64,000 nt of DNA from a virus (taxonomy: Duplodnaviria > Caudoviricetes), in IMG/VR virus record IMGVR_UViG_3300031949_001696, one strand, 5' to 3'. Position 1 is the stretch's first letter. Every line of letters begins with the position of its first letter. A model generated the notes under the pieces. That model did not search any database. It was not told the origin of the DNA and worked only from the letters and a program-made list of their open reading frames with translations. Both the position numbers and the translations under genes were made by a program. Of this stretch, positions 3,320-64,000 are shown piece by piece.

Positions 3320-4519
3320 ATGTGGTTCATTCCCGTCCTCCTCCTCGGCCTGATCGCAGTCGCAGCATCGCGGCGATCGACGCGCGAGGCAATTTCTCCG
3401 ACGCGTCAACTTCCTCCACCACCTCGGGGCATGCCACAACTTTCGGCACCTTCGGGGCCTCTGGGTCCTCCGGGCCCGCTCTCGGTGCTCGGTGAGATCC
3501 TGCGCGGCGGCAAGACGCCACCCCCGACCGTGGTCCTCTGCGCGATCGCCGAGGCGCAATCGATCGGCCGCAATGACCTGGCGTCTGACATCGTGCAAGC
3601 GTTCGTCGTGCCGGTCGTCTATCAGCACCAGAAGCTTCGTGCTCAGAGAGCCAACTGCGAACGTGGATCTTACTCGTGCGCGCCCCGCTACGCTCCTGCC
3701 GCGCCGCCACTCGAAACGATCGTGATTCCAGCGACGCCGCCACACGCTCCAGCTCCGGCTCCGGTCCCCACGCCTGCTGCTGCCCCTGCCGCTGCCTCCG
3801 AGCCGCAGCGCGCACCATTGCCGATGTTGCCGATGCCGTCGACGGAAGACGCGATCGACGCGCTGCTCAACGCAGATCCGAGGCGCTTCATGGAGCTGGT
3901 GTCGCGCGGGGGTACGTTCCCTGGAACGACCGTTCCGCAGGTCGTGCCGACGTCGGCGCCGCCCGCGCCATCTCCGCCGCCCACCCCGATCGCGCAGCCG
4001 ACGGGATTGCCGACCGAGACCGTCGCGCAGATGCAAGAGGCTGCTGGGCTGCACGAGGCGGCCGATCAGACGCGCGCGATGTCGCCCGGCTCTCCGATTC
4101 CGGGCGTCCCCGACTTCGCCTGGCGCAACTTCGTCGCGCGCCTCTCGCGCGAGTCTCCGCAGTTTGCTTCGTCGCGGCACGTCGGGCAGTATCGCCAGCG
4201 CCGTGAGCGGCTGGTCGAGCTCGGAATCGATCCGACCGCGATCGCGGGTTCGGCGCAGGCCCAGCGCGTCGCTCTCGACGCAGATCTCGCCGACGCTCAT
4301 CACCACGCGACGGCTGGCGACGTCTTCGCCAAGCACCTCGGGCGACCGATCATCTTGCCAGGGCGCGAGGACACCGAGACGGTCACGTTGTCCGGCGTGC
4401 TGGGCGTGATCCAGTGCGCGGGGCTCGACGGCGCAGTGGGTTGGCTCGAACGTTCGAACGATCGCAAGCGGTATCCGCACACCACGCAGACGTTCATGCA
4501 CACGAACAACGTGTTTTGA
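3320..4519 (+). CDS. N-terminally anchored Pro-rich protein with globular C-terminal domain
   Basis: MWFIPVLLLGLIAVAA; GGAGG upstream. Confidence 0.7.
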   Translation: MWFIPVLLLGLIAVAASRRSTREAISPTRQLPPPPRGMPQLSAPSGPLGPPGPLSVLGEILRGGKTPPPTVVLCAIAEAQSIGRNDLASDIVQAFVVPVVYQHQKLRAQRANCERGSYSCAPRYAPAAPPLETIVIPATPPHAPAPAPVPTPAAAPAAASEPQRAPLPMLPMPSTEDAIDALLNADPRRFMELVSRGGTFPGTTVPQVVPTSAPPAPSPPPTPIAQPTGLPTETVAQMQEAAGLHEAADQTRAMSPGSPIPGVPDFAWRNFVARLSRESPQFASSRHVGQYRQRRERLVELGIDPTAIAGSAQAQRVALDADLADAHHHATAGDVFAKHLGRPIILPGREDTETVTLSGVLGVIQCAGLDGAVGWLERSNDRKRYPHTTQTFMHTNNVF

Positions 4520-4591: not shown

Positions 4592-4936
4592 ATGGCGAAC
4601 GACCGCGGACAGTACGGCAAGAACGACGAGACGCGCGTAGGAGCGACGGTCTACGTCGATCGCGCGCCGTCGACATCGATCGGGGCGTGGATCCTCGGCA
4701 CGATCGCCGTCGGTGGCGTCGTGCTGTGGGCCCGACACCAGGGAAAGCAGATCGAGCAGCTCTACAAGACGGCGGGTATCCCGCACCAGAGCTTCGCGGC
4801 CGATCTGGGCCAGAGCGCGAAGGCGCTGCCATCGAAGACGAGCGCGGCGTTACACGGCCTCGCGGAACGCGTGCGACCGACGAAGAAGAGTGCCCCGCCG
4901 GTCGCGAAAACGACATCAACCAAAAGTGAGACCTGA
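4592..4936 (+). CDS. Small single-TM protein with RGQYG tag
   Basis: MANDRGQYG; TM segment IGAWILGTIAVGGVVLW. Confidence 0.7.
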   Translation: MANDRGQYGKNDETRVGATVYVDRAPSTSIGAWILGTIAVGGVVLWARHQGKQIEQLYKTAGIPHQSFAADLGQSAKALPSKTSAALHGLAERVRPTKKSAPPVAKTTSTKSET

Positions 4937-4937
4937 G

Positions 4938-5171
4938 ATGGCGAAGACTCCAGCAGGCATGCGCAACATCTCGACGACGTATCAGCCCGCGTACGAGACG
5001 TACGACGGCAACGTGCAGGTCCGCAGGATCGGTGAGCGGCTGTGGGAGATCCTGCCGCGCGGAGGCGCCTCGGTCTACGAGAAGTCCAAGCCGGCCGCGA
5101 TCGAGCGCGCGTTCCAGCTCGCAGCTTCTACTTCGGCGCGCAGAGCGACGAGGAAGCAGGGAAAGCGGTAA
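4938..5171 (+). CDS. Hypothetical protein
   Basis: Internal ATG right after upstream stop; stop overlaps next ATG. Confidence 0.6.
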   Translation: MAKTPAGMRNISTTYQPAYETYDGNVQVRRIGERLWEILPRGGASVYEKSKPAAIERAFQLAASTSARRATRKQGKR

Positions 5172-43916: not shown

Positions 43917-44384
43917 GTGAGGGCCGGGTACGGGCGCGGATACTACGGCGAAGGTCAGCTCGCGCGCAGCGCCCCGCGTCGTCGGAGCTGGTTCACTGTT
44001 GTTGCCGTCCTCGGTGTCGGCGCCGCGGTGGTGTGGCTCTTGTGGCCGCGTGGATCGTCGCCCGAGCCTATGTACGGGGGCAAGGAGTCCGAAGCTCCTC
44101 CGCCTCCGCCTCCGCCGTCAGGAGCCCAGATCCAGATCAGTCCTCCGACGTCGTTGCTGCTCCAGATCAGCGCGCCCGCCGAGGCTTCTCCGCCCGGTGT
44201 GGCGGTGGGTGCCTTCCTCAAGCAGCTCGAGGACGACGCGCTCTTGCGTGGTTTTTCGTCTACCAAGGAGTACGAGGACTCGGTGATCGCGATCGCCAAG
44301 GAGCTTGGGGCCACGGGCACGAAGGTCATGCTCGCTCCGCATCTACAGCACCTCGCCCCGCGCTTGGGGTCTTCGGCGCCGTGA
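43917..44384 (+). CDS. TM protein with RGYYG tag
   Basis: AGGAG SD; TM segment; poly-Pro. Confidence 0.65.
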   Translation: MRAGYGRGYYGEGQLARSAPRRRSWFTVVAVLGVGAAVVWLLWPRGSSPEPMYGGKESEAPPPPPPPSGAQIQISPPTSLLLQISAPAEASPPGVAVGAFLKQLEDDALLRGFSSTKEYEDSVIAIAKELGATGTKVMLAPHLQHLAPRLGSSAP

Positions 44385-46426
44385 GCGATCCCGCTTCGTC
44401 TGCCCGCCGCTTTGTCTGCCGCGCATGCGGCCACAGGCATGCCACCTGGGCAGCACGCTGTTCGAGCTGCCGCGCGCTGGAGGGACTCACCGTCGAGTTG
44501 ATCGAGGTGCCGGTCTTGCTTCCGGCTCTTCCGCCGCAGACGCAGAGTGTTCCGCAGGTGGTGGCGCCGGAGCCGTCACGTCCGCGTCTCATGATCGCGC
44601 GCGCGCCCGAGCCTGCTCTCGAAGATCCGGCCGAGGAGCTGGTGGACGTTGCCTCGCCGGCGTCGGTGCCACTCTCCGATGTCTCCGAGACGACGTTCGC
44701 GCGCGATTTGACGGGATTGACGCCGCTCGACTACGTGCTCGGGGGCGGCCTCGTCGTGGCCTCCGTCATCTTGCTTGCGTCTCCGCGAGGGATCGGCAAA
44801 TGCCTCGGCGGCGGAACTCCCGTGCTCATGTTTGACGGGCGCTCGCTGCCTGTTGAGCAAATTTTACCGGGTGATCGTTTGATGGGTCCCGATGGCAAGT
44901 CACGTACGGTTCTCGCGACGACCGCTGGTATCGGAGAACTTTTCCGAATTGATCCGATTAAGGGTGAGCCCTGGATTTGCAACGGTGCGCATGTACTCAC
45001 GCTGGTCAACGGCCATACCGACGAAGTGATTGACGTGCCGCTTAGTGAGTGGCTCGCGAAGACACCGCACTCCGATCTGCGGCGCTATGGAAAGTTGTTC
45101 AGCACAGGCATCAACACGTTCGGAGATTCGACCGCAAACGAGCAGCATCTTTTGCCGATCGACCCTTATTTCCTTGGAGTTTGGTTCGGTGATGGAACGA
45201 AATGGCGCATCGAACGGACAACGGGCGAACAGCTCGCGAAGATTCAAATTACCAAACCCGATCCTGAGATTCTTGCGTTGTGTGAGGAACAGGGACGTTT
45301 GTGGGGTCTTCGTGTGCATACATACGAGTCCGCAACCAAGCGCGCTTCATATCAGCTTGTCGCGAATGAAGCTCCAGAAGGTGAAGGACGTTGGGCACCA
45401 AATCCATTGCTGCGTGCCCTTCGCGATATCGTTGGACCGGAGGTCAAAGTCCCCGACGCGTATCTCCGAGCCCCGCGGGGCCCGCGCCTTCAGTTTCTAG
45501 CAGGCTGGTGCGATACGGATGGCGAACTTGCGGGCACAACCTTCGTTATTTCGCAAAAGCGTGAAGACTGGGCGCGTACCATCTGGTGGCTCGCGCGCTC
45601 TCTCGGTTTCTGCGCGACCATTAAAACGCGAACCTCTCATTACACACGACCTGACGGTTCGCGCTTTGAAGGAACATACTGGGTCGTATTTATCAGCGGC
45701 GATACAGATCAAATCCCCACGCGACTACCGCGCAAGAAAGCGCCGCCTCGACGACAGAAAAAAGTCGCGACGCGGACCGGATTTACTGTGCATTCCTTGG
45801 GCGAGGGCGCTTATTACGGTTTTTCGCTCGACAGTGATGGGCGCTTCCTGCTCGGGGACTTCACTGTCACACACAATTCATCGCTAGCGCTCCAGATGCT
45901 CAACGGACTCGGGCATCGCTGTCTGTACGTATCGGGAGAGGAGACACTTGAGCAGGTGGCCATGACGGCTCGCCGTATCGGCGCGGCCTCGAAGAAGGTC
46001 AACATGCTGCCCGAGAGGAATCTCTCCATGATCTTCGCCGAGGCGCGCGCGATCCGGGCACAGACGATCGTGATCGATTCGATCCAGAAGATGCGCTGTG
46101 ATGACGTGGGCGGTCGCGCCGGTTCGCCGGGACAGCTCAAGGAGTGCACGGCGCAACTGGTCGACTACGCCAAGAACAACAGGACGGCTCTCTGGCTCAT
46201 TGGACACACGACTTCCGATGGCGACATCGCGGGGCCCATGACGATCGAGCACGAGGTCGACGTGGTGCTCGAACTGACGCAAGGCGCAAAGTTTGACGGC
46301 AATGAGCGGATCCTCACGTGCTTGGGCAAGAACAGGTTCGGACCGAGTAACCTGGTGGGACACTTCGAGCTGACCGCCAAGGGTTTTGTCTCCGTCGACG
46401 CCGACGGGTGGAACGAGGAGCTGTGA
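44381..46426 (+). CDS. radA: RadA/Sms-like ATPase (Zn finger + RecA core, no Lon-like domain) with intein
   Basis: FVCRACG...W...CSSC; LDYVLGGG; GIGK|S; YVSGEE; VIDSIQ; KNRFG. Confidence 0.85.
   Translation: MSDPASSARRFVCRACGHRHATWAARCSSCRALEGLTVELIEVPVLLPALPPQTQSVPQVVAPEPSRPRLMIARAPEPALEDPAEELVDVASPASVPLSDVSETTFARDLTGLTPLDYVLGGGLVVASVILLASPRGIGKCLGGGTPVLMFDGRSLPVEQILPGDRLMGPDGKSRTVLATTAGIGELFRIDPIKGEPWICNGAHVLTLVNGHTDEVIDVPLSEWLAKTPHSDLRRYGKLFSTGINTFGDSTANEQHLLPIDPYFLGVWFGDGTKWRIERTTGEQLAKIQITKPDPEILALCEEQGRLWGLRVHTYESATKRASYQLVANEAPEGEGRWAPNPLLRALRDIVGPEVKVPDAYLRAPRGPRLQFLAGWCDTDGELAGTTFVISQKREDWARTIWWLARSLGFCATIKTRTSHYTRPDGSRFEGTYWVVFISGDTDQIPTRLPRKKAPPRRQKKVATRTGFTVHSLGEGAYYGFSLDSDGRFLLGDFTVTHNSSLALQMLNGLGHRCLYVSGEETLEQVAMTARRIGAASKKVNMLPERNLSMIFAEARAIRAQTIVIDSIQKMRCDDVGGRAGSPGQLKECTAQLVDYAKNNRTALWLIGHTTSDGDIAGPMTIEHEVDVVLELTQGAKFDGNERILTCLGKNRFGPSNLVGHFELTAKGFVSVDADGWNEEL
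44801..45877 (+). mobile_element. Intein (359 aa) with LAGLIDADG homing endonuclease in the RadA P-loop
   Basis: Starts CLGGGTPV, ends FTVTHN|S; PYFLGVWFGDG and FLAGWCDTDG; lower GC. Confidence 0.92.
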
Positions 46427-54056: not shown

Positions 54057-54511
54057 TGAGCACGAGCGAGGTTGCGCCTGGGCTCTACGTCGGCAGTAAA
54101 CCCCCGCCGGGGCGGCACGAGGGTGTCGACGTGATCGTCTTGGCCGCGATGGAGTACCAGCCGCCCGCGCACCTGTTCCCGGGGATCGAGGTGATTCATG
54201 CACCGCTCGATGACGCTCCGGGTCGGCGGATGCGCGAAGACGAGATTGCGATCGCGACCAAGGCGGCCAAGCGTGTCGCGCAGCTACTGCGCTCGGGCCG
54301 CCGTGTGCTCAGTACATGCCAGTTGGGTCTCAATAGATCGTCGCTCGTCGCCGCGCTCGCGATGCACGACGTCTATGGCATGAGCGCGAACGAGCTTGTT
54401 ACGAGGCTTCGGCGAGCTCGTGGCGCGTGGGCACTATCGAATCCAAATTTCGAGAAGCTCTTACGCGTCGTGATCGACGTGCGGGACGGCGGCTCGCGCT
54501 GCTCTCCATAG
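54056..54511 (+). CDS. Dual-specificity phosphatase-like protein
   Basis: GLYVG, PLDD, CQLGLNRS (CX5R), NPNF. Confidence 0.8.
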   Translation: MSTSEVAPGLYVGSKPPPGRHEGVDVIVLAAMEYQPPAHLFPGIEVIHAPLDDAPGRRMREDEIAIATKAAKRVAQLLRSGRRVLSTCQLGLNRSSLVAALAMHDVYGMSANELVTRLRRARGAWALSNPNFEKLLRVVIDVRDGGSRCSP

Positions 54512-54671
54512 CGCCAGCGGGCGCGTGGTAAGCTCGTGTGCGGAGGGCAGGTCACGTCACGATGCGAATCCAGATCGCCCAGGGCGCACCGAACCTTCTC
54601 TCGCAGGAATAAGCCTCTACAATAGAGGAAGCCTTTCGCAATCTAGGCTTTGCGCCTTCAACACGACTGCG

Positions 54672-54698
54672 ACGAACGGACGAACGAACGAACGAACG
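54672..54698. repeat. (ACGA)n microsatellite
   Basis: Seen directly between convergent genes. Confidence 0.7.
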
Positions 54699-54722
54699 CG
54701 CAGCGCAGCGCCAGCGCACTAG

Positions 54723-55160
54723 CTACGGCTTCGTCTCGTGGGGCGGCTTCGGGATCGATTGATCGACGGGCGTGATCTCGTCATTGGACGCGACGCGTGT
54801 GTCGTCGTCGAGGTCGACCTTGACGACGTCTCGCGTGGTCGTCCGCGGGATCTCGTCGAGCGGGACGCGGACGAGCGGTGTCATTTCGCCGGTCGGGATT
54901 CGCGGCGGCGTGACGTCGTCTTCGTCGAGAAACGGCGCCATCACCAGGTGGAGCGCACGCTGCGGATGATCGGGGACGTCGACGAGGACGAACAAGTCGC
55001 GTCCGGCTCCCGGACGAAGGCCGGGGAGGCGTCCGAGGCGTCGCATGTCGTCGATCTCTTCCCAGATCTCGACGATCTCGTCGTGGGCGAGCACCGTCTC
55101 GGCCGTCGTCAGGAACTTGCCCGTCTGCCGGAAGTAGATCAGCTGGACCTTGTACGTCAC
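54723..55160 (-). CDS. Hypothetical protein
   Basis: Strong coding bias. Confidence 0.65.
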   Translation of the reverse strand: MTYKVQLIYFRQTGKFLTTAETVLAHDEIVEIWEEIDDMRRLGRLPGLRPGAGRDLFVLVDVPDHPQRALHLVMAPFLDEDDVTPPRIPTGEMTPLVRVPLDEIPRTTTRDVVKVDLDDDTRVASNDEITPVDQSIPKPPHETKP

Positions 55161-55233
55161 CTACGCAGCACGGTATCGCGCGCCGTGAACGATCGCGAAT
55201 CTTCGGCCGCCACCGCGCGGACATGCGCGTTCG

Positions 55234-55262
55234 TTGACTTCGTAGCAGCGCCGCGCTAGCAT
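55234..55262 (+). promoter_or_regulatory. sigma70-type promoter of the tRNA array
   Basis: TTGACT-N17-TAGCAT. Confidence 0.7.
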
Positions 55263-55278
55263 CCTTCTCGTACCAGTC

Positions 55279-55452
55279 ATGTCGATCGCATCCATATCCA
55301 CGAGAGTCACAAGGCGCCAAGGCGTCATGGGACGCGTGTGTGCTCGCCGCGATTGGGCCAAAGCTGCGAATTTCGCCGGCCACGGGACCGTCGAGGGTAT
55401 CAAGCGCCAGCCGCAGCCCACGACCTACGAAGGAAAGGCTCCAGACGCATAG
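55279..55452 (+). CDS. Putative 57-aa leader peptide (MSIASISTRVTRRQG...YEGKAPDA)
   Basis: ATG about 10 nt after predicted TSS; last codons overlap the antiterminator 5' strand; too short for the ORF track; no SD. Confidence 0.55.
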   Translation: MSIASISTRVTRRQGVMGRVCARRDWAKAANFAGHGTVEGIKRQPQPTTYEGKAPDA

Positions 55453-55487
55453 ACCGAGCTAGAAGATAGCCGAAGCGATCTGGAGCC
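55437..55487 (+). promoter_or_regulatory. Putative antiterminator helix
   Basis: GGCTCCAGA (55437-45) is the exact complement of TCTGGAGCC (55479-87). Confidence 0.6.
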
Positions 55488-55523
55488 GCCCTGGGAACAA
55501 ACCCTCGGCGGTTTTTTCGTTTT
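55482..55523 (+). terminator. Intrinsic terminator/attenuator immediately before the first tRNA
   Basis: CCGCC/GGCGG stem, inner GGG/CCC, then TTTTTTCGTTTT. Confidence 0.75.
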
Positions 55524-55524
55524 C

Positions 55525-55608
55525 GGGTGCGCAGACCGGCGTGGTCCCGGGCCTGACTGTAGATCAGGCGTGCTCTGCACCGTCTTGGTTCGATTCCAGG
55601 CGCGCCCA
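55525..55608 (+). tRNA. tRNA-Tyr(GTA), atypical D-arm
   Basis: Acceptor GGGTGCG/CGCGCCC; loop CTGTAGA; variable arm; TTCGATT. Confidence 0.8.
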
Positions 55609-55669
55609 CGAAAGGAAAGGAGACGTGATGCAGAAGAAGCTCAAACGTTCGACCGCGGAAACCCATCCT

Positions 55670-55741
55670 GGGCCCGTGGCGCAACGGTAGCGCACTCGGC
55701 TTTTACCCGAATTGTTGGGGGTTCGAATCCCTCCGGGCTCA
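55670..55741 (+). tRNA. tRNA-Lys(TTT)
   Basis: Cloverleaf; loop CTTTTAC. Confidence 0.9.
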
Positions 55742-55753
55742 CGAACAGATTGA

Positions 55754-55824
55754 TCAGGGTTCGTCCAACGGTAGGACCTGCGCCTCTGGAGCGCATGACG
55801 AGAGTTCGAATCTTTCACCCTGAA
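55754..55824 (+). tRNA. tRNA-Gln(CTG)
   Basis: Cloverleaf; loop CTCTGGA. Confidence 0.9.
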
Positions 55825-55965
55825 CCGCGGCCGACTGCATCGCGCGTGAATCGACGGTCCCCCGAGCAACAGCGCTCACAGCGGGACGACAGCGACACGG
55901 CGAGGACGGGGCATGAAAACAGAAGCTAGAACTGAGTGTCGGACGGTCTTGATACGATCGTCACG

Positions 55966-56436
55966 ATGGGTAAGCAGTGCACTCAATGTCACAAGGTCAA
56001 AGCCGTTGCCGAATTTCAATACAGAACTGCGACGACGGCACGGTGTCGTGAATGCAACAAGGCAGCATGCCGTGCCTGGCATGCCAAGAACAAAGGCGTT
56101 TACAAAGAGAAACGAAAGGAGCAGTGGAAGAGTCGAAATCGACCCGCCATCGAATTCGTACTCGCCGCGAAGAGTAAGCCTTGCACAGACTGCGGGCGAA
56201 CCTTCCATCCTGTGGCGATGGACTTCGATCATGTGAAAGGAAAGAAGACCACTGAAATCTCGACACTGATGAGAAGTGGCTACAGCTTGGAGCGGATCAA
56301 GAAGGAAGTCGCCAAGTGTGAAGTGGTGTGCGCATGTTGCCATCGTGTACGAACGCTCAAGAGAATGGGCACCAGTTCAAGACCGTATTCCATGTACGAC
56401 GTGTTCACGGACAACGGAAAGCTTCTTGGCAATTGA
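55966..56436 (+). CDS. HNH endonuclease-like protein
   Basis: CTDCG, MDFDHV, KCEVVCACCHRVRT. Confidence 0.8.
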   Translation: MGKQCTQCHKVKAVAEFQYRTATTARCRECNKAACRAWHAKNKGVYKEKRKEQWKSRNRPAIEFVLAAKSKPCTDCGRTFHPVAMDFDHVKGKKTTEISTLMRSGYSLERIKKEVAKCEVVCACCHRVRTLKRMGTSSRPYSMYDVFTDNGKLLGN

Positions 56437-56485
56437 ATAGTTGAATGACGATGACGCGATCGCGGCATGTAGCACGATCGCAAAT

Positions 56486-56558
56486 GCCCAGACAGCTTGC
56501 TTGGTGCAAGCGCCGTCCCGAAAAGTCGGAGATGATCGTTCGAACCGATCTCTGGGCA
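56486..56558 (+). tRNA. tRNA-Phe(GAA)
   Basis: Loop CCGAAAA (C33). Confidence 0.85.
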
Positions 56559-56560
56559 CT

Positions 56561-56632
56561 GCCTCCGTAGCTCCAATGTAGAGCAAGCGGTTCTTACCCG
56601 TGAGGCTGTTGGTTCAAGTCCAACCGGGGGCA
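56561..56632 (+). tRNA. tRNA-Lys(CTT)
   Basis: Loop TTCTTAC. Confidence 0.85.
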
Positions 56633-56787
56633 CTAGTTCTCGTTGCTGTCCTTCCAAAAGCTCACAAGCGCGGTGGGGATCAGCAGTAACAGAAACAGCA
56701 CGATGTCACGTAGACGCCAGCCGTCGCCGAAGTCACTCATACTAGAAAGATCGTTCCGCGCTGGGTTTCGTGACAGGAAAAGTTCAA

Positions 56788-56861
56788 CGGGGTGTAGCTC
56801 AGCTTGGTAGAGCGCGTGCCTTGGGCGCATGAGGTCGCAGGTTCAATTCCTGTCGCCCCGA
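56788..56861 (+). tRNA. tRNA-Pro(TGG)
   Basis: Canonical cloverleaf. Confidence 0.95.
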
Positions 56862-56947
56862 CGAGAAACATGGGTGCCTGAGGACCCTGTCGGCGTTGCC
56901 GACGAACGTTGAAGCACGGCGCCGTGCTGAGACGACCAGGAAAACTT

Positions 56948-57018
56948 GCAGGTCAGGCCGACTGGCGAGGCACCGCGTTGCCAACGCGGATAGACGGATT
57001 CGATTTCCGTGATCTGCT
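56948..57018 (+). tRNA. tRNA-Gly(GCC)
   Basis: Loop TTGCCAA; U73. Confidence 0.85.
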
Positions 57019-57024
57019 CTGAAG

Positions 57025-57096
57025 GCCCGTACAGCACGATGGTCGTGCAGCAGTTTCGTAAACTGCCGGTTGCCGGTTCAAGTCCGGCTGCGGGCT
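57025..57096 (+). tRNA. tRNA-Thr(CGT)
   Basis: Loop TTCGTAA. Confidence 0.9.
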
Positions 57097-57100
57097 CGAC

Positions 57101-57173
57101 GCTATCGTAGCTCAGCTGGCAGAGCACCTGACTTGTAATCAGGGGGTCCCGAGTTCGATTCTCGGTGGTAGCT
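57101..57173 (+). tRNA. tRNA-Thr(TGT)
   Basis: Canonical cloverleaf. Confidence 0.95.
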
Positions 57174-57183
57174 CGATGATCAT

Positions 57184-57266
57184 TCCGAGGTAGCCTAGCG
57201 GCAAGGCACGCGGCTGTTAACCGCGCGTGGGAAACCACATCGTTGGTTCGAATCCAACCTTCGGAG
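57184..57266 (+). tRNA. tRNA-Asn(GTT) with long variable arm
   Basis: Loop CTGTTAA; G73; extra hairpin GTGG-GAAA-CCAC. Confidence 0.85.
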
Positions 57267-57350
57267 CGTACGGTTCTCGCGCAGTTCCTTCAGGCGATTG
57301 GCTCCGGGCGTTCCCAGCTCGGTGCAGGCTCCGCGGCGCGTGAACCTTCT

Positions 57351-57422
57351 GCGGGTGAGGCCGACTGGCGAGGCACCGGGTTTCCACCCCGGCTAGGTAG
57401 GATTCGATTTCCACCATCCGCT
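57351..57422 (+). tRNA. tRNA-Gly(TCC)
   Basis: Loop TTTCCAC; U73. Confidence 0.8.
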
Positions 57423-57435
57423 CGAATGCGCGCAT

Positions 57436-57507
57436 GTGCACGTAGCTCAGCAGCAGAGCGCCGTCTCGACAAGGCGGATGCCGCAGGTGCAATCCCTGCC
57501 GTGCACA
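57436..57507 (+). tRNA. tRNA-Val(GAC)
   Basis: Loop TCGACAA (C33); T-loop TGCAATC. Confidence 0.85.
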
Positions 57508-57516
57508 CGATGACAC

Positions 57517-57668
57517 GTCGTGTTCGTCTAGCGGCCAAGGACGCTGGTCCCTGTGTCCGTCGCCCCATCGCGCGGTGCGGTGAGTCGTCGGACACTAGGT
57601 TCGGTCAGTGATGTCGTAACGCCACTTCCCTCAAACCGGCAACACGGGTTCGAGTCCCGTACACGACG
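57517..57668 (+). tRNA. tRNA-Glu(CTC) interrupted by a 79-nt insert in the anticodon loop
   Basis: Intact acceptor GTCGTGT/ACACGAC, D and T arms; removing one TCCCT-bounded unit gives CTGGT-CCCTCAA-ACCGG. Confidence 0.75.
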
Positions 57669-57681
57669 CGAAGAAGTTTCT

Positions 57682-57754
57682 GCCCCTGTAGCTCAGCAGA
57701 TAGAGCGCCTGGCTACGGACCAGGATGCCGGAGGTGCAAATCCTTTCAGGGGCG
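57682..57754 (+). tRNA. tRNA-Arg(ACG)
   Basis: Loop CTACGGA. Confidence 0.9.
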
Positions 57755-57835
57755 CTAGGCGAACGTGCACGTGGGCAGCTCACAACGATGTCTCACCATC
57801 GTTGCGATGACTGGTGCACCGACGCCTCAATTTCT

Positions 57836-57902
57836 AGGCCGTGATCTGGGATCAGCTTGGTTTCCAAAACCGATCAGCGAGGTTCAATCCCTCGACGGCC
57901 TG
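57836..57902 (+). tRNA. tRNA-Trp(CCA), shrunken D-arm
   Basis: Acceptor AGGCCGT/ACGGCCT; loop TTCCAAA; D-arm GATC-TGG-GATC. Confidence 0.75.
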
Positions 57903-57906
57903 CTAC

Positions 57907-57981
57907 GTGGTCTTGGCCTCGCGGACGGCGAACGCGAGGAGGAAGCTAAAGCACAGCTGGGTGAAAGTCCCGGAGACCACG
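57907..57981 (+). ncRNA. tRNA-like RNA without anticodon arm
   Basis: GTGGTCT/AGACCAC; T-like arm CTGGG-TGAAAGT-CCCGG; hairpin CCTCGCG/CGCGAGG. Confidence 0.55.
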
Positions 57982-57985
57982 CCTT

Positions 57986-58057
57986 CGCGGCGACTAGTGG
58001 ATCTAGACGGCGGTTTCATAAGCCGCTCGGAGTGCGGTTCGAGTCCGCCCGTCGCGA
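57986..58057 (+). tRNA. tRNA-Met(CAT), atypical D-arm
   Basis: Loop TTCATAA; TTCGAGT; Met, fMet or Ile2 identity unresolved. Confidence 0.75.
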
Positions 58058-58061
58058 CTCA

Positions 58062-58133
58062 CGGGGTGTAGCTCAGGAGTAGAGCGCATGGTTCGGGACC
58101 ATGAAGCCGCTGGTGCGATTCCAGTCACCCCGA
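58062..58133 (+). tRNA. tRNA-Pro(CGG)
   Basis: Loop TTCGGGA. Confidence 0.9.
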
Positions 58134-58138
58134 CTCAC

Positions 58139-58212
58139 GGAGAGTAGTTCACCGGGCGGTGATGCCGATTTTACATGTCGGCTGCGCATGGGTTCGAGTC
58201 CCTGGCTCTCCA
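58139..58212 (+). tRNA. tRNA-Val(TAC), atypical
   Basis: Acceptor GGAGAGT/GCTCTCC; loop TTTACAT. Confidence 0.7.
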
Positions 58213-58218
58213 CGATTT

Positions 58219-58290
58219 CCGCTCGTAGCTCAACGGTTGAGCGCGTGCTTGATAAGCGCGAGGCTGGTGGTTCGAGTCCACCCGAGCGGA
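58219..58290 (+). tRNA. tRNA-Ile(GAT)
   Basis: Loop TTGATAA. Confidence 0.9.
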
Positions 58291-58303
58291 CGATGAGAAC
58301 GAC

Positions 58304-58375
58304 GGGCCTCTAGTTCAACAGTAGAACGCTCGGCCTATTACCGAGATGTTGAGGGTGCAAATCCTTCGGGGCCTA
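58304..58375 (+). tRNA. tRNA-Ile(TAT)-like
   Basis: CTCGG-CCTATTA-CCGAG; C33 and T37 non-canonical. Confidence 0.65.
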
Positions 58376-58382
58376 CGATCAC

Positions 58383-58459
58383 GGTGCATGGAGCCAGCTG
58401 GAGACGGCGCTCGGATGTGGCCCGAGTTTCGGCGAGTTCGATCCTCGTCATGCACCCCA
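58383..58459 (+). tRNA. tRNA-His(GTG)
   Basis: G-1:C73; loop ATGTGGC; encoded CCA. Confidence 0.9.
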
Positions 58460-58463
58460 GTTT

Positions 58464-58535
58464 CGAGCAGTGGCGAAGTGGCATCGCGCCGGTTCGGGGA
58501 ACCGGAAATCGCAGGTTCGATCCCTGCCTGCTCGA
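58464..58535 (+). tRNA. tRNA-Pro(GGG)
   Basis: Loop TCGGGGA (C33). Confidence 0.88.
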
Positions 58536-58612
58536 CGAAAGGAGGTTGCGGCCGATCTACTGTCAGATCGTTCGTGCAGGAGCGTCTAGTCTATAGAAGG
58601 AGAACGAACGCC

Positions 58613-59149
58613 ATGGAGCCGACACATCAGACTCTGGTCCTTTCGCAAGGCTACGAACCGGTCAAGATCGTTTCGTGGCAGCGCGCCATCACGCTGCTCT
58701 TCCTCGGTAAGGTCGAAGTGGTCGAGGAGTACGACCGCGGCATCAAGACGACGTCGCTCGTGATCAAGATCCCGTCGGTGGTGCGGCTCCTCAAGGCATT
58801 CCGTCGGTACCCAAAGCCGGTGAAGTTCTCACGGATCAACATCTACGGGCGCGACAAGTACACCTGCCAGTATTGCGGGACGAAGAAGTCGATCGGCGAG
58901 CTGACGTACGACCACGTTGTGCCGCGTTCGCGGGGTGGAAAGACAACGTGGACCAACATCGCCACGTGCTGCTCGGACTGCAATCGCCGAAAGGCGAATC
59001 GCACACCGGAGCAGGCCGGCATGCGGCTGCTCAAGGAGCCCGTGCTGCCGACCGCCACGCCGGTGCTGGTAGTGGCCGTGAGCCGTGAGTCGGCACCCGA
59101 CGCGTGGCGCGATTACCTGTACTGGACGAGCGAGTTGGACGAAGACTGA
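58613..59149 (+). CDS. HNH endonuclease (McrA-like)
   Basis: AAGGAG SD; RD.YTCQYCG, LTYDHVVPRSRGG, W.N...C..CN..K. Confidence 0.92.
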   Translation: MEPTHQTLVLSQGYEPVKIVSWQRAITLLFLGKVEVVEEYDRGIKTTSLVIKIPSVVRLLKAFRRYPKPVKFSRINIYGRDKYTCQYCGTKKSIGELTYDHVVPRSRGGKTTWTNIATCCSDCNRRKANRTPEQAGMRLLKEPVLPTATPVLVVAVSRESAPDAWRDYLYWTSELDED

Positions 59150-59180
59150 TGTGCGAGCGCGCGGCAACGCGCTCGCATTT

Positions 59181-59255
59181 GGGGACGTAGGGGAGCTGGC
59201 CGTCCCCGCTGGCCTGTCACGCCGGAAATCGCGAGTTCGAATCTCGTCGTTCCCG
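59181..59255 (+). tRNA. tRNA-Asp(GTC)
   Basis: Loop CTGTCAC; G73. Confidence 0.92.
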
Positions 59256-59266
59256 CTTCGCGCTTT

Positions 59267-59335
59267 GGGGTGAGTACCGGGGTACAGCTGACCCTCGCAC
59301 GGTCGGCCCGCCGAGTTCAACTCTCGGTCGCTCCA
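59267..59335 (+). tRNA. tRNA-Ala(CGC), shrunken D-arm
   Basis: G3:U70; loop CTCGCAC; D-arm GTAC-CGGG-GTAC. Confidence 0.75.
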
Positions 59336-59339
59336 CGAC

Positions 59340-59411
59340 GGGTCCATGGCTCAATGGGAGAGCGCTCGCATGGCATGCGAGAGATTGCGCGTTCGATTCG
59401 CGCTGGATCCA
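59340..59411 (+). tRNA. tRNA-Ala(GGC)
   Basis: G3:U70; loop ATGGCAT. Confidence 0.9.
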
Positions 59412-59445
59412 CGATCGCTGCTCAACCGCGCGGTGCCCACACGCA

Positions 59446-59514
59446 CCATTGATGCCTCAAGGTGAGGCGTCGGCCTTCGGAGCCGAAAGTCTGGTTCAAT
59501 TCCAGATCATCCCC
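59446..59514 (+). pseudogene. tRNA-Arg(TCG) with destroyed 5' acceptor strand
   Basis: D, anticodon (CTTCGGA) and T arms intact; only 3 of 7 acceptor pairs form. Confidence 0.7.
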
Positions 59515-59556
59515 AAAAGGGATCGTGCACCGCGCACTCGAGCAGCGAACACTTTC

Positions 59557-59790
59557 TCAGTGCCCCTGGCAAGGTCCTTCGCAGATCTTGCAGTAGTCCT
59601 CGTCGAACGTATCGTCGATGGAGTGGTCGCCAGGCGGGTAGATCATTTCCTCTTCGAGGACGTCTCCGCTCGCAGTGCAGCTCGGACAAAGGAGGTCGTC
59701 GCCAGACCGTAGCCAGTTGTCGGGGAGTTGATCGATATCAGCGATCTCCTGAACCTTGCCGCACCGCGTGCACACGACGAACGTGGCCAT
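59557..59790 (-). CDS. Small Zn-finger protein
   Basis: CTRCG, LCPSC, YCKIC..PC..H. Confidence 0.6.
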   Translation of the reverse strand: MATFVVCTRCGKVQEIADIDQLPDNWLRSGDDLLCPSCTASGDVLEEEMIYPPGDHSIDDTFDEDYCKICEGPCQGH

Positions 59791-59866
59791 GCTTCCAGGC
59801 TACGTGAACGACGACGGCACGGACAGTTTTTGGCTCTCGGGTAGGCGTGTTGTTTTTGCACGCTGG

Positions 59867-60433
59867 CTAGCGCAGGGTGATTCGAGCGATCGCCACGGCG
59901 TTCTCGCGCTCGAATGTCTCGCGATTGATCGAAAGCACGAGATCGTTGTCTTCGTCGGCGAACGCGCGCGCTTTCGATGAGGTGTCAAGGTCGAAGCCTA
60001 GCTTCTCGAACACGCGACATGACGCGACGTTCGCAGGGATCACCGATGCGTAGATCTGCGTGAGCCCCAAGCGCGCGAAGCCCGCGGCGCAGATCATCAA
60101 CGCGAAGCGCGTGCCGAGACCCTTACCTTGCTCGTTGGGATCTGCGATCAGGAATGCGAACTCGCAGGCACCGTCGTGCGACGTGCGCAGGTCGCCGTCG
60201 CCGACGAGGCACCCATCGCGGAACAACAGGAAGGGATGTCCACGGTCGGCGATCATGTTGACGTAGTGCTCGAGCACGTCGGCTTCATCGAGCGGCTCGG
60301 TGTGACCGAGCAGCGCCGCGTTCTTTGGGTCGTTGTAGGCAGCGGCGAACGTGGGGGCGTGCTTGTGCACGTCGTTCACCGTTGCCTCAACTGCGCTGAG
60401 ATCATTCCACTCCACGCGTAGCAGCTCCGTCAT
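59867..60433 (-). CDS. GNAT (RimJ/RimL-like) acetyltransferase
   Basis: GGAGG SD; QGKGLGT, N.AS..VFEKLGF. Confidence 0.85.
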   Translation of the reverse strand: MTELLRVEWNDLSAVEATVNDVHKHAPTFAAAYNDPKNAALLGHTEPLDEADVLEHYVNMIADRGHPFLLFRDGCLVGDGDLRTSHDGACEFAFLIADPNEQGKGLGTRFALMICAAGFARLGLTQIYASVIPANVASCRVFEKLGFDLDTSSKARAFADEDNDLVLSINRETFERENAVAIARITLR

Positions 60434-60455
60434 CTATCTCCTCCGTAATGAGCAA

Positions 60456-60519
60456 GTCTAAGCACAGCTCGGTGGACGCTGGGGCTACGCGGTGTGTCTA
60501 AGCACAGCTCGGTGGACGC
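60456..60519. repeat. Two perfect 24-bp direct repeats, period 40
   Basis: GTCTAAGCACAGCTCGGTGGACGC at 60456 and 60496. Confidence 0.85.
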
Positions 60520-60654
60520 GGTGGTTGTGCGGTGTGTTCAGGGTCAACCAAGAGGAGAGACGTTGCTTAGGCAACCCTACGAAACTGGATAAATTGCAAT
60601 GTATTGAACCGAAGTTGCAGCCTGGTCGTAGGTTGCGCGACACTCGCACATCCG

Positions 60655-61134
60655 ATGAGACTCAAGCCGCCACGCACGCACTACCTTGGCAAGGTGGCCG
60701 GACTTTCCATCTACCTCGTCTCGGGTGTGGACGTTCGTAACACCACCGACATTGACTTCACGTGCGGCGGCAATGAGGCCGTCTACCCGAGCTACGTCCC
60801 GCCCGGCGAGATCTGGCTCGATGATGCCGCTGGGCCGTTCGATCGCACGGCGACAGCGCTGCATGAGATTGTCGAGCGCCATCAGATGATGACGTTCGGA
60901 AAGAACTACGAAGATGCGCACGAAGTCGCATCGGCGACGGAGCGGCCGTTCCGTCGTGAGCTGGCCAAAGCCCCGCCGAAGGCATTTGATCCGCGGCGCG
61001 TCGCGACGGCCTACCAGGCGTACCTGAAGAAACCCGGACGCCATCCCGTCGTTGACCGGCCGAACGATCCGCGGCGGGGAGCCAAGCAGATGGACCGCGA
61101 GATCGGGGAAGCGCTCGGGCGACGAGCGCGCTGA
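60655..61134 (+). CDS. HExxE (zincin-like) protein with C-terminal QMDREIGEAL tag
   Basis: EIWLD, ALHEIVE, Y..AH..A...E. Confidence 0.7.
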   Translation: MRLKPPRTHYLGKVAGLSIYLVSGVDVRNTTDIDFTCGGNEAVYPSYVPPGEIWLDDAAGPFDRTATALHEIVERHQMMTFGKNYEDAHEVASATERPFRRELAKAPPKAFDPRRVATAYQAYLKKPGRHPVVDRPNDPRRGAKQMDREIGEALGRRAR

Positions 61135-61152
61135 CAAGTCGAGAGCACGGTG

Positions 61153-61227
61153 GGTTCGCCGCTGTGTCTCTATGCTTTCGACCGGGACGCACACCCGCGA
61201 TGTCGCCGTCCGAGCGTGCGGTCATGG
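61153..61227 (-). pseudogene. Fragment duplicating the 3' end of 61685..62056
   Basis: MTARSDGDIAGVRPGRKHRDTAAN vs MTARSNGDIAWVRPGRKHSGTAAN. Confidence 0.75.
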
Positions 61228-61254
61228 CGCCGACACGGATAGTTTGTGGCTCTC

Positions 61255-61327
61255 GGGCAGGCATGTACCAAGGAGGCGAGCTGGATTTGCAATCCGGTTG
61301 CGGTCGGTTCGATCCCGATCCTGTCCA
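61255..61327 (+). tRNA. tRNA-Ala(TGC)
   Basis: G3:U70; loop TTTGCAA; weak D-stem. Confidence 0.8.
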
Positions 61328-61393
61328 CGCCACGCTAGACTGTCGCGATGACGAACACGGAGGTCCACATGATGACGTAGCCGCGCTTCCTTC

Positions 61394-61618
61394 ATGGAAG
61401 CGCTCATCGAGATCCGTCTCATCACCATCAACAAGCAGCCCACCGAGGAGAATCACGTAGAAGAGTTCGTCGAGCTGCTCGAAGCAGGTCGGCAGCTGCC
61501 GGCAATCAAGCTTCGCAAGATCACCGACGACGAGTACCGCCTCGTCGATGGTCGACACCGCCTTGAGGCGCGGCGACGTCTCGGCAAAACGCGCGTTCGC
61601 GCGCACATCACGTTGTAG
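61394..61618 (+). CDS. ParB N-terminal-like domain protein
   Basis: LP.I, YRLVDGRHRLEA. Confidence 0.7.
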   Translation: MEALIEIRLITINKQPTEENHVEEFVELLEAGRQLPAIKLRKITDDEYRLVDGRHRLEARRRLGKTRVRAHITL

Positions 61619-61684
61619 CTGCCCCAAAGGTGACCGCAGATTTCGGCATGCTCGCCTGGTACGCGAGAGACTCCGAGTTGGGGC

Positions 61685-62056
61685 TCAAGGTTGTTTGAAG
61701 TAGCGGCGCGCGAGGTTCGCCGCGGTGCCGCTGTGCTTTCGCCCGGGGCGCACCCACGCGATGTCTCCGTTCGAGCGCGCGGTCATGGTCTCGTCCCGCG
61801 CTTCGTCGGTCGAGAAGCCTCCGACCGTCGGGAACCCTCCGACGTTGTTTCGCGGCGACGTGAACATGTGGAACACCTGCACGCGCAGAGCGCGCTCGTC
61901 GCGCAGGTAGAGCTGGGCCAGCAGGTCGCAGCCTCGCGCGTCTCCCACCACGAACGCGGCTTCTTCCGCGATCGCTGTCGCGATCCGTGGAGCGTAGTGC
62001 GCGCGGAACTCGTCGACCGTGAGGTCGAGATGTCCGCTGATGAAGTAGGTCTTCAT
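61685..62056 (-). CDS. Hypothetical protein (possible SLOG-like nucleotide-binding fold)
   Basis: FISGH, FVVGDA.G.D, RD..M, SGT..N. Confidence 0.65.
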   Translation of the reverse strand: MKTYFISGHLDLTVDEFRAHYAPRIATAIAEEAAFVVGDARGCDLLAQLYLRDERALRVQVFHMFTSPRNNVGGFPTVGGFSTDEARDETMTARSNGDIAWVRPGRKHSGTAANLARRYFKQP

Positions 62057-62073
62057 GTGGGTCGTTTACCTGA

Positions 62074-62144
62074 TCGGGGATCGTCTAACGGTAGGACGTG
62101 CGCCTTTGGAGCGCACTATCAAGGTTCGAATCCTTGTCCCCGAA
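62074..62144 (+). tRNA. tRNA-Gln(TTG)
   Basis: Loop CTTTGGA. Confidence 0.92.
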
Positions 62145-62273
62145 CTACACTGCACGCGTCTCCTCGCGCGCGGGGCCTGCGGAACGGCAGGCGGGCTGTG
62201 CAAGAGCCCGCGCGTAGATCACCGTGGTCAGCTCACTCCTACGGCTTCCAACGGGGCGAGCACTTTTCTTCTT

Positions 62274-62346
62274 GCGTCGGTAGCCAAGTGGCCAAGGCAC
62301 GCGCCTGCAAAGCGCGCAGTGACGGGTTCGATTCCCTCCCGACGCT
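62274..62346 (+). tRNA. tRNA-Cys(GCA)
   Basis: Loop CTGCAAA; U73. Confidence 0.9.
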
Positions 62347-62366
62347 CGAAACTCTTCACGCTCCAC

Positions 62367-62439
62367 GCTCTCGTAGCTCAATGGATAGAGCAGACGGCTT
62401 CTACCCGTAAGATTGAAGGTCCGAGTCCTTCCGAGAGCA
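62367..62439 (+). tRNA. tRNA-Arg(TCT)
   Basis: Loop CTTCTAC. Confidence 0.88.
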
Positions 62440-62445
62440 CGTCCC

Positions 62446-62519
62446 GCCTTCGAAGCCGCATTGGAAGCGGCACCGAGTTCCTACCTCGGAGGTTGCAGGT
62501 TCGAGTCCTGTCGAAGGCA
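62446..62519 (+). tRNA. tRNA-Arg(CCT)
   Basis: Loop TTCCTAC. Confidence 0.9.
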
Positions 62520-62527
62520 CGCCTCCT

Positions 62528-62629
62528 GCGGGCATGCGGCAATGGCGCCGCGCCGGTCAAGCTTTCGTCGTCCGAGCGATCGGGCTGTCGCGAGACCGTT
62601 ATCAGGTTCGATCCCAGATGCCCGCTCCA
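62528..62629 (+). ncRNA. tRNA-Gly-like RNA with anticodon loop replaced by a 35-nt GNRA-capped extension; encoded CCA
   Basis: GCGGGCA/TGCCCGC-T-CCA; D and T arms; CGGTC/GACCG stem. Confidence 0.7.
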
Positions 62630-62667
62630 TCATCTAGTCCATCTAGTGGTACCTCTCGCCGACGGAA

Positions 62668-62868
62668 ATGCTGACCATCAAGCTCTTCGGAGACAAGCAA
62701 GCTGAGAGGTTTGTCTGGTCGATCGCGGTCATGGACAGTCGCGGCATGCACCTCGTTACGGACGGTACCGCCGACTCGGCAGAAAACGCCAAGGCGGGGA
62801 TGCGCACTGCTCTCGGAAAGCTCGTCGAGAAGTTGGAATTCCGGCCCGTCGCACCCACCGACGACTGA
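62668..62868 (+). CDS. Small hypothetical protein
   Basis: ORF between tRNAs. Confidence 0.45.
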   Translation: MLTIKLFGDKQAERFVWSIAVMDSRGMHLVTDGTADSAENAKAGMRTALGKLVEKLEFRPVAPTDD

Positions 62869-62902
62869 TCGTCGGCCAAGTTTCGTCATCGTTGTTCACA
62901 GC

Positions 62903-62970
62903 GCCTCCGCACGTGGACGTGACCCGAGTTTCCGAAACTCGGTGAGCTGGTTCGACTCCAGCCGGAGGTA
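62903..62970 (+). tRNA. tRNA-Arg(CCG), shrunken D-arm
   Basis: Loop TTCCGAA; D-arm CACG-TGGA-CGTG; TTCGACT. Confidence 0.75.
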
Positions 62971-62977
62971 CTACTTT

Positions 62978-63024
62978 GTCGGCGTTTCACAACGGAGATG
63001 CGGGTTTGACTCCCGTCGCCGATA
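62978..63024 (+). ncRNA. 47-nt tRNA minihelix-like RNA (acceptor + T-arm only)
   Basis: GTCGGCG/CGCCGAT; GCGGG-TTTGACT-CCCGT. Confidence 0.55.
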
Positions 63025-63091
63025 CGATCTCCACGCACTTGCATCCGAGTGCTTCTGATGTACAACGCGTGGCTTAACCAGGAGAACGCAC

Positions 63092-64000
63092 ATGTCGATC
63101 GACTATCTGATGGACGCCGTTGCGTCGCCGACGCAGCGAGAGAAGGCCGACCCTCGGCAGGTCATGAACAATGCAGGAGGCTACACGTTCGTCGTCGACG
63201 ACTGGGCACGCCTGCGCCGCTTCCTGGTGCTCGGCGCCGAGGGCGGCACGTACTATGCGTCCGAGAAGAAGCTCGCGCGCGAGAACGCCGCGTGCGTCGA
63301 GCGGCTGATCCAGCTCGATGGTCCACGCCTCGTTCGCGAGGTGGCCGAGCTGTCGGAGAGCGGTCGCGCGCCCAAGAACGATCCGGCGATCCTCGCGCTC
63401 GCGCTCGCCGCCAAGCTCGGCGACCTGCCGACCAAGCGGGCCGCGTACGCGGCGCTGCCGCGCGTCTGCCGCATCGGCACGCACCTCTACCACTTCGCCG
63501 CGTTCACGAGCGCAATCGCGGGTGGCGGCTGGGGCGCCGGCATGCGCCGCGCAATCGGCGACTGGTTCAACGCCCGATCGGTCGACGACACCGCGCACCA
63601 GGTCGTGAAGTACCAGTCGCGCGACGGCTGGTCGGCCAAGGACGTCCTTTGCCTCGCGCGTCCGAACCCGAAGAAGGCGTACCGCTTCGACAAGGAAGCA
63701 GGGCGTGTCGTCGCGGCCGACGACTTCGCCGCGCGCGACGCGCTCTACCGCTGGGTGACGTACGGCGTCGAGGGCCTCGACGTCGATCAGCGCGCGAAGC
63801 TGCCGGCGATCGTCGATGCGTTCGAGCAGCTCAAGGGCCTGACCGACGGCAAGAAGGTCGTCGCGCTGATCCGCGAGCACTCGCTGCCGCGCGAGGCCGT
63901 GCCGACGCAGCACCTGACGCTTCCCGAGGTATGGGAGGCGCTCCTGCCGCACATGGGCCTGTCCGCTCTCGTCCGTAACCTCGCGACGATGACGCGCGTC
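63092..64000 (+). CDS. rsr: Ro60/TROVE-domain RNA-binding protein (Rsr), 3' truncated by window
   Basis: AGGAG SD; QVMNNAGGYTFVVDDWARLRRFLVLGAEGGTYY, GRAPKND, RIGTHLYHF, KYQSRDGWS; not in the ORF track. Confidence 0.95.
   Translation, partial: MSIDYLMDAVASPTQREKADPRQVMNNAGGYTFVVDDWARLRRFLVLGAEGGTYYASEKKLARENAACVERLIQLDGPRLVREVAELSESGRAPKNDPAILALALAAKLGDLPTKRAAYAALPRVCRIGTHLYHFAAFTSAIAGGGWGAGMRRAIGDWFNARSVDDTAHQVVKYQSRDGWSAKDVLCLARPNPKKAYRFDKEAGRVVAADDFAARDALYRWVTYGVEGLDVDQRAKLPAIVDAFEQLKGLTDGKKVVALIREHSLPREAVPTQHLTLPEVWEALLPHMGLSALVRNLATMTRV

Follow-up and report, generated by a model that had tools for sequence, protein, structure and literature searches.

The window, by which we mean the whole 64,000-nucleotide stretch of viral DNA analysed here, carried more than 25 tRNA genes, all in the same orientation, in an array of 7 kb that immediately preceded a TROVE/Ro60 gene. 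The Ro60 gene (552 aa) was followed by the gene of a PF09414 RNA ligase. Among the large ORFs of the window, 9 of 10 had no PHROG family match. A DnaB-like helicase ORF at 44033-46426 contained an intein with a homing-endonuclease domain (Hint, Hom_end Pfam; PHROG 19). The tRNA array also held an HNH endonuclease gene and, at 59867-60433 on the minus strand, a GNAT acetyltransferase gene. The nearest cellular homologues of the GNAT protein were 55-58% identical and belonged to named Kofleriaceae (Myxococcota), which is a possible hint at the host. In addition, default ARAGORN missed three tRNA genes in the window besides the tRNA-Glu gene described below:

57351-57422: tRNA-Gly(TCC), Rfam 37.5 bits
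57836-57903: tRNA-Trp(CCA) with a shrunken D arm, orthologous to positions 6789-6860 of the related locus L011
62902-62969: tRNA-Arg(CCG) with a short D arm, conserved in six relatives

A tRNA-like gene at 62528-62629 had no anticodon. A covariance model, R1, was built from 28 docking modules, and it matched the window at 62549-62622 with 19.9 bits (E = 5e-4). On the strength of this model match, the gene is a member of a family of tRNA-shaped Y RNAs. Many genes of this kind, 117-142 nt long, were found at Ro60 loci, and they had a normal acceptor stem, D arm and T arm. In place of the anticodon loop they carried a module of the form TTG-stem-loop-stem-C-CGA, followed by GTTATC. Members were found in L002 (12274-12403, 12492-12621 and 12729-12855), L013 (11809-11933) and L057 (9113-9248), with about 20 more. 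The module is the helix by which Y RNAs dock to Ro60, here capped with a loop, and it is the non-permuted counterpart of YrlA. The YrlA model of Rfam describes the circularly permuted form only. One relative had a YrlA-like RNA in the region next to Ro60.

The interrupted tRNA-Glu(CUC) gene

The gene studied here had a complete Glu-type tRNA body in which all four stems were paired. Its parts were as follows:

57517-57668, + strand: tRNA-Glu(CUC) gene, 152 nt
57517-23/57661-67, + strand: acceptor stem, 7 bp, read from the sequence
57544-48/57635-39, + strand: anticodon stem, 5 bp
57644-60, + strand: T arm, normal
57517-57552, + strand: 5' part of the gene, with the acceptor 5' strand, D arm, anticodon-stem 5' strand and loop CCCT
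57548-57552, + strand: left TCCCT repeat in the native position, comprising T31 of the stem and C32-U35 of the loop
57553-57626, + strand: foreign sequence of 74 nt, a gap in all five orthologues
57627-57631, + strand: right TCCCT repeat, the duplicated copy, read from the sequence
57632-57668, + strand: 3' part of the gene, with loop CAA, anticodon-stem 3' strand, variable loop, T arm and acceptor 3' strand

The gene had the characteristic Glu D arm and a 4-nt variable loop. Its 3' end carried the discriminator G, and CCA was not encoded. The first-pass annotation had described the arms as intact, and the acceptor, D, anticodon and T arms were indeed all present. The two strands of the anticodon stem were separated by 86 nt, compared with an expected 7. 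The 5' part was aligned without gaps with orthologues in L007, L031, L006, L061 and L011. Direct reading bore out the TCCCT direct repeat that had been placed at the ends of the insert (57548-52 and 57627-31), and the insert was correctly located 5' of the canonical 37/38 site. By our own arithmetic, a flanking 5-nt repeat is expected by chance in roughly 1 of 1000 cases at fixed positions, and the repeat was therefore taken as real. Any 79-nt frame starting at 57548-57553, once deleted, gave the same product, CTGGTCCCTCAAACCGG.

Neither default ARAGORN nor the Rfam tRNA model detected the interrupted gene. ARAGORN with introns allowed recovered it and called it Arg(CCT) with an 81-nt intron, because the canonical intron position was forced. 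When this mode was applied to the metagenome loci described below, it mostly fused adjacent tRNAs, and its intron calls were filtered by hand. Removal of the insert at the repeat restored the loop CCCTCAA of the L007 orthologue exactly. This settled the identity of the gene, which, by comparison with the orthologues, is Glu(CUC).

Position 33 of tRNAs is a near-universal U. In the window, C33 was found in place of U in tRNA-Phe(GAA) (56486-56559), tRNA-Val(GAC) (57436-57508) and tRNA-Glu(CUC). The C33 of tRNA-Glu(CUC) was common to the L007 orthologue (4075-4148) and was not found in L006, L011, L031 and L061. Since C33 was also present in the Phe(GAA) and Val(GAC) genes of the same array, it did not indicate a defect particular to the Glu(CUC) gene.

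The empty site in relatives and the second tRNA-Glu gene

Relatives were obtained as 79 metagenome loci fetched with the Ro60 fragment of the window as bait. The tRNA order of the window (Asn, Gly, Val, Glu(CTC), Arg) was kept in L006, L007, L011 and L061, whose Ro60 identity was 66-81%. In these four loci, the syntenic slot between Val(GAC) and Arg(ACG) was occupied by Glu(CTC). A similar tRNA-Glu gene was found in a fifth locus, L031. In all five relatives the gene was uninterrupted and 73-75 nt long (73-74 nt in the first four), and alignment of the window gene with the five orthologues gave one clean 79-column gap. The closest of the five was L007. It showed few differences from the joined halves of the window gene, and one of these was a compensatory pair in the anticodon stem. 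The anticodon loop of L007, CCCTCAA, was unusual and identical to the loop of the joined halves. The sequence of the TCCCT site was present in one copy at the empty site of the relatives and in two copies flanking the insert. L007 had a single CCCCT at the position of the left repeat.

Since the insert was absent from the syntenic orthologues and its deletion restored the loop, the insert is, as judged from these alignments, a derived state of this genome alone. On comparison of the aligned genes, it was shown that 74 bp entered the gene and that the 5-bp target TCCCT was duplicated after the split from L007-like relatives. The first-pass annotation had proposed to search homologous arrays for the insert and for covariation. 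The insert was found in no relative (0 of the 5 orthologues).

Large changes in tRNA content were observed among the relatives. The nearest relative by GNAT protein was L206 (ENA ERZ28575407 scaffold_356; protein 92% identical, DNA identity about 90%). At 2598-3863 of L206, the counterparts of window positions 55508 and 58111 were joined with about 90 nt between them. Thus, L206 was without about 2.6 kb of tRNA genes, equivalent to 55.5-58.1 kb of the window, and tRNA-Glu was included in this loss. The number of tRNAs upstream of Ro60 was four in L008-L010, 29 in L006 and 24 in L007. In L011, a 130-nt tRNA-like gene at 4819-4948 had CTATGGA as its anticodon loop, and its variable region contained an insert of 57 nt. 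That insert repeated part of the gene's own D-arm sequence, and the gene looks like a rearranged or decaying tRNA.

The interrupted gene had been described as the only Glu tRNA in the window. It was the only near-complete one, and a truncated remnant of tRNA-Glu(UUC) was located at about 62975-63026, in the place where relatives have the intact gene just before Ro60. Compared with L006, L007, L011, L061 and L073, the remnant had lost the D arm and the anticodon-stem 5' strand. The aligned sequences suggested that the deletion apparently fell between two CGGC repeats. The T loop of the remnant was TTTGACT, in which C56 was lost. Both Glu genes of the genome were therefore damaged by small DNA rearrangements, with about 25 other tRNAs intact. 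This may mean that Glu tRNAs were no longer needed, which favours a pseudogene. It may also mean that the interrupted gene was the last one left, which favours continued use. In the case of codon usage, ten long ORFs contained 228 GAG and 96 GAA codons. A CUC anticodon cannot read GAA, so a complete private tRNA set was already broken, and the reading in which Glu tRNAs were no longer needed was given more weight.

Fold of the insert and search for its relatives

The folding of the insert arm was predicted. The anticodon stem and two hairpins met in a three-way junction:

57550-57599, + strand: hairpin 1, with the 7-bp stem GTGTCCG/CGGACAC, z = -3.0
57603-57630, + strand: hairpin 2, GG..AGTG / CACT..CC, weak, z = -0.4

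The helices named in the first-pass annotation were found as described, namely GTGTCCG (57553-59) with CGGACAC (57589-95), and AGTG (57607-10) with CACT (57623-26). Inward, the stem of hairpin 1 continued as an interrupted helix, and outward, past the bulged T57596, it continued as CCT/AGG. The hairpin was thus a helix of about 16 bp whose loop had 5 nt, and a T loop was absent. Only 1.2% of shuffles were as stable as hairpin 1 (z = -3.0), and the 99-nt arm gave z = -2.8. Hairpin 2, at z = -0.4, was at the level of shuffled sequence, and the 74-nt insert alone (z = -0.8) was not more stable than chance. The insert had been called structured; this held for hairpin 1 and did not hold for hairpin 2 or for the 74 nt taken alone. 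In the predicted folds, hairpin 1 contained the 5' border of the insert or had it at its foot, and the 3' border was located in a single-stranded joint.

No second copy of the insert was found in the 64-kb window, either by BLAST or with a 43-nt pattern allowing 3 mismatches. The fetched loci, about 210 in all, also gave no copy in searches that included BLAST of the window and 84 loci. IMG/VR gave none with four patterns and with BLAST in five records, and GTDB, with one genome per prokaryotic species, gave none with two exact patterns. The INPHARED phage collection gave matches at the tRNA level only. A permissive Rfam scan of 54500-64000 (E up to 1) placed no intron, ribozyme or other family over the insert. 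No promoter or terminator was found inside the insert. The insert also had no short words in common, on either strand, with the described stretches of the genome, which spoke weakly against its being a CRISPR repeat-spacer unit.

Several classes of element were considered and rejected. A group I intron has a conserved P3-P9 catalytic core, and its 5' exon ends in U. The group I introns of tRNAs, such as those of tRNA-Leu(UAA), tRNA-fMet and Azoarcus tRNA-Ile, have a P1-P9 core, end in a G and measure about 200 nt or more. The insert resembled the group I introns of bacterial and cyanobacterial tRNAs in its location in the anticodon loop. However, it was 79 nt long, had no Intron_gpI match in the permissive Rfam scan of 54500-64000, and had no terminal G. 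The first-pass annotation was right in calling it too short for this class. Its six equivalent 3' ends (57626-57631) are T, T, C, C, C and T. Because none of them is G, the borders cannot be those of a group I intron. Group II and spliceosomal-type borders were ruled out on size and end sequences. In the case of self-cleaving ribozymes (hammerhead, twister, pistol, hatchet, HDV-like), Rfam gave no match at E up to 1. The insert was also not tRNA-shaped, as there was no Rfam tRNA match inside 57549-57631 and hairpin 1 was without a T loop.

Archaeal and eukaryotic tRNA introns are cut at a bulge-helix-bulge by EndA and joined by RtcB. The bulge-helix-bulge consists of two 3-nt bulges with a 4-bp helix between them, and it is located at the splice sites. 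Like these introns, the insert is a short non-ribozyme sequence in the anticodon loop whose removal would need protein. However, inspection of the predicted folds gave no 3-4-3 bulge-helix-bulge at the borders, and the insert was not at 37/38. Within the 64-kb window, neither EndA nor RtcB was seen. The first-pass annotation had linked RtcB to Ro60. This link was not borne out, because the ligase beside Ro60 belongs to the ATP-dependent PF09414 family.

The insert shared several features with MITE-like elements and filler DNA. It is short and non-coding, and it has a target-site duplication (TCCCT) that is a single copy at the empty site, as would be looked for in a MITE-like or IS-derived element. 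As with such inserts, its precise loss by slippage between the repeats would be possible. In contrast to MITE-like elements, it had no convincing terminal inverted repeats (by eye, about 7 of 10 bases matched weakly at the ends), and no other copy was present in the sequence searched.

The closest published parallel to the insert is the short introns of the tRNA genes of Lak megaphages, which have been called 'enigmatic' (Devoto et al. 2019, PMC6784885). Both are short, lie in the anticodon region of phage tRNAs, are below group I size, belong to no Rfam family, and show presence and absence between related genomes (PMC6784885). However, Lak inserts identical in sequence were found again in different cohorts, and one Lak insert is tRNA-shaped (PMC6784885). 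The window insert is a singleton from a high-GC virus, is not tRNA-shaped, and has a 5-nt flanking duplication. Other phage Glu-type tRNA genes with inserts were also observed. In L110, L194 and L197, which are AT-rich contigs of 183-413 kb, the anticodon region of Glu-type tRNA bodies was interrupted by about 65 nt. An insert of about the same length in the Glu-type tRNA of the high-GC locus L180 (10761-10894), also in the anticodon region, contained a T-arm-like hairpin. Inserts in phage Glu-type tRNA genes are thus not rare, and none of these four resembles that of the window.

Origin and fate of the insert

The insert could be an artefact of assembly or sequencing that is absent from the real genome, which we consider very improbable. 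The window came from a single metagenome assembly (a 267,828-bp contig, ENA ERZ27256953), and an independent Logan contig of the same sample stopped before the tRNA-Glu gene. The contigs of four soil runs on 56900-58300 did not cover 57511-57604 and were uninformative on splicing or on variants without the insert. Against an artefact, assemblers based on de Bruijn graphs do not typically produce, by error, a unique 74-nt sequence with an exact 5-nt duplication precisely within a gene that is collinear elsewhere. In addition, of the words sampled from the 2.4 kb around the insert, 99% were present in one run, possibly that of the source sample. A change of function is quite improbable as well. 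The gene might have been turned into a tRNA-scaffolded non-coding RNA, which would owe its stability and processing to the tRNA body, with the inserted arm serving as a protein handle or decoy. This was suggested by the tRNA-shaped gene at 62528-62629 in the same array, where the anticodon loop is replaced by a Ro60-docking module, and by a member of the Y-RNA family (L057 9113-9248) that has a Glu/Gln-type D arm. The outline of hairpin 1 also agreed with that of the docking helix, both having a stem followed by one bulged pyrimidine in the 3' strand. YrlA (Rfam RF02553; Chen et al. 2014, PMC4201824) and the gene at 62528-62629 have, as here, a tRNA body with a structured anticodon-loop module in a tRNA array by Ro60. 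However, the docking motifs were missing from the insert and the family model did not find it: with filters off and E values up to 10 allowed, R1 had no match in 57517-57668. The insert had C at the family's invariant G beside the bulge, had no GTTATC motif, and was unlike the docking stem GGGTTG...TTCATCC of the Y RNAs of the clade. YrlA is also circularly permuted relative to tRNA, unlike the interrupted tRNA-Glu(CUC). The reading of the insert as a Y RNA or Ro60-docking module was rejected by the R1 model and by the comparison with the docking stem of the clade. A singleton insert with no conservation spoke against the scaffold more generally.

It is also unlikely that the insert is a protein-dependent intron, which an endonuclease would cut out and the viral ATP-dependent RNA ligase would join to give a working tRNA-Glu(CUC). 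The endonucleases would be those of the host or the virus that leave 3'-OH and 5'-phosphate ends. Speculatively, the cuts might be made by an RNase P-like enzyme at 57552|57553, where hairpin 1 has its foot, and by an RNase Z-like enzyme at 57631|57632, one base past hairpin 2. The PF09414 RNA ligase gene adjoins Ro60, a few kb from tRNA-Glu. The exon halves were intact, and removal at the repeat gave the loop of the orthologue exactly. The insert is located in the anticodon loop. One of the permitted borders coincides exactly with the start of the 7-bp stem in hairpin 1, and its partner border follows the end of hairpin 2 by one base. This fit to the hairpin feet was not strong evidence for an intron, because a chance fit is easy with six equivalent border pairs and because the stability of hairpin 2 (z = -0.4) did not exceed that of shuffled sequence. 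Other Glu-type tRNA genes of phages in IMG/VR that contain inserts of about 65 nt (L110, L194, L197, L180) and the unexplained short tRNA introns of Lak megaphages (PMC6784885) pointed in the direction of an intron. In contrast, the insert was found in one genome only, so there was no conservation or covariation, and a duplication of 5 nt at the flanks is characteristic of an event at the DNA level and not of RNA intron mobility. Neither a tRNA shape (by Rfam tRNA match within the insert) nor a bulge-helix-bulge was present, and no splicing endonuclease was in view. The decayed Glu(UUC) of the same genome argued for relaxed selection on Glu tRNAs. In its complete form, this would be a working intron that does not splice itself, is cut by RNA-end-processing nucleases at the hairpin feet, is sealed by the viral ligase and provides the only viral source of Glu tRNA for this genome. 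We regard that form as a little more doubtful still. We know of no bacterial virus in which an intron of such a kind has been shown. To our knowledge, the protein-dependent splicing of tRNAs has been established in archaea and eukaryotes alone; in the case of the short introns of megaphage tRNAs, it has been suspected and never shown.

On balance, the probable explanation is a recent insertion at the DNA level, accompanied by the 5-bp duplication, which most likely inactivated tRNA-Glu(CUC). The clean 79-column gap in five relatives, the exact TCCCT repeat and the singleton status of the insert counted for this reading. The lack of an Rfam intron or ribozyme over the insert and the z value of the insert alone (-0.8) counted in the same direction. 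In addition, the Glu(UUC) remnant, the loss in L206 and the few tRNAs in L008-L010 indicated that tRNA genes are expendable in the clade. The location in the anticodon loop, where tRNA introns sit, counted against insertion with loss of function, and the use of GAG as the main Glu codon counted against a pseudogene. Both halves were intact, with paired stems and a normal T loop. This was explained by a very recent insertion, and equally by continued use.

The 5-bp duplication may be the trace of a staggered cut that was filled in around captured DNA. Alternatively, the insert might come from a small non-autonomous transposable element or from a microhomology-guided template switch. A transposable element drew no support from terminal inverted repeats or from further copies in the sequences searched. 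The transcript would be a 152-nt tRNA-shaped RNA with a three-way junction in place of the 7-nt loop, and it would be unable to decode unless the insert was removed. No signal for its removal was found in the sequence and the predicted folds. Since such an RNA could not decode and a removal signal was missing, the gene is most likely a young pseudogene in which both halves are still undecayed. The TCCCT repeats, with a strong hairpin between them, might allow a rare precise deletion by replication slippage, which would restore the gene.

The first-pass annotation had offered three readings, a new small intron type, a nuclease-activated pro-tRNA and an insertion scar. The scar fitted best, supported by the absence of the insert from five syntenic orthologues, its single copy and the 5-bp duplication, and the intron was left without positive support. 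It had also stated that the combination of no spliced product with a unique, non-conserved insert would speak for a simple pseudogene; as to the latter part, the insert was found to be unique and non-conserved.

If the insert is spliced, the gene would make protein-dependent tRNA splicing accessible to experiment in a bacterial virus. A test of splicing is made simple by the comparison set, which gives the site without the insert in five relatives, the exact borders and the junction to be expected, CTGGTCCCTCAAACCGG. If it is a mere scar, it is an ordinary case of the fast gain and loss of genes in viral tRNA arrays, where close relatives in one clade show an insertion, a microhomology deletion and a 2.6-kb loss.
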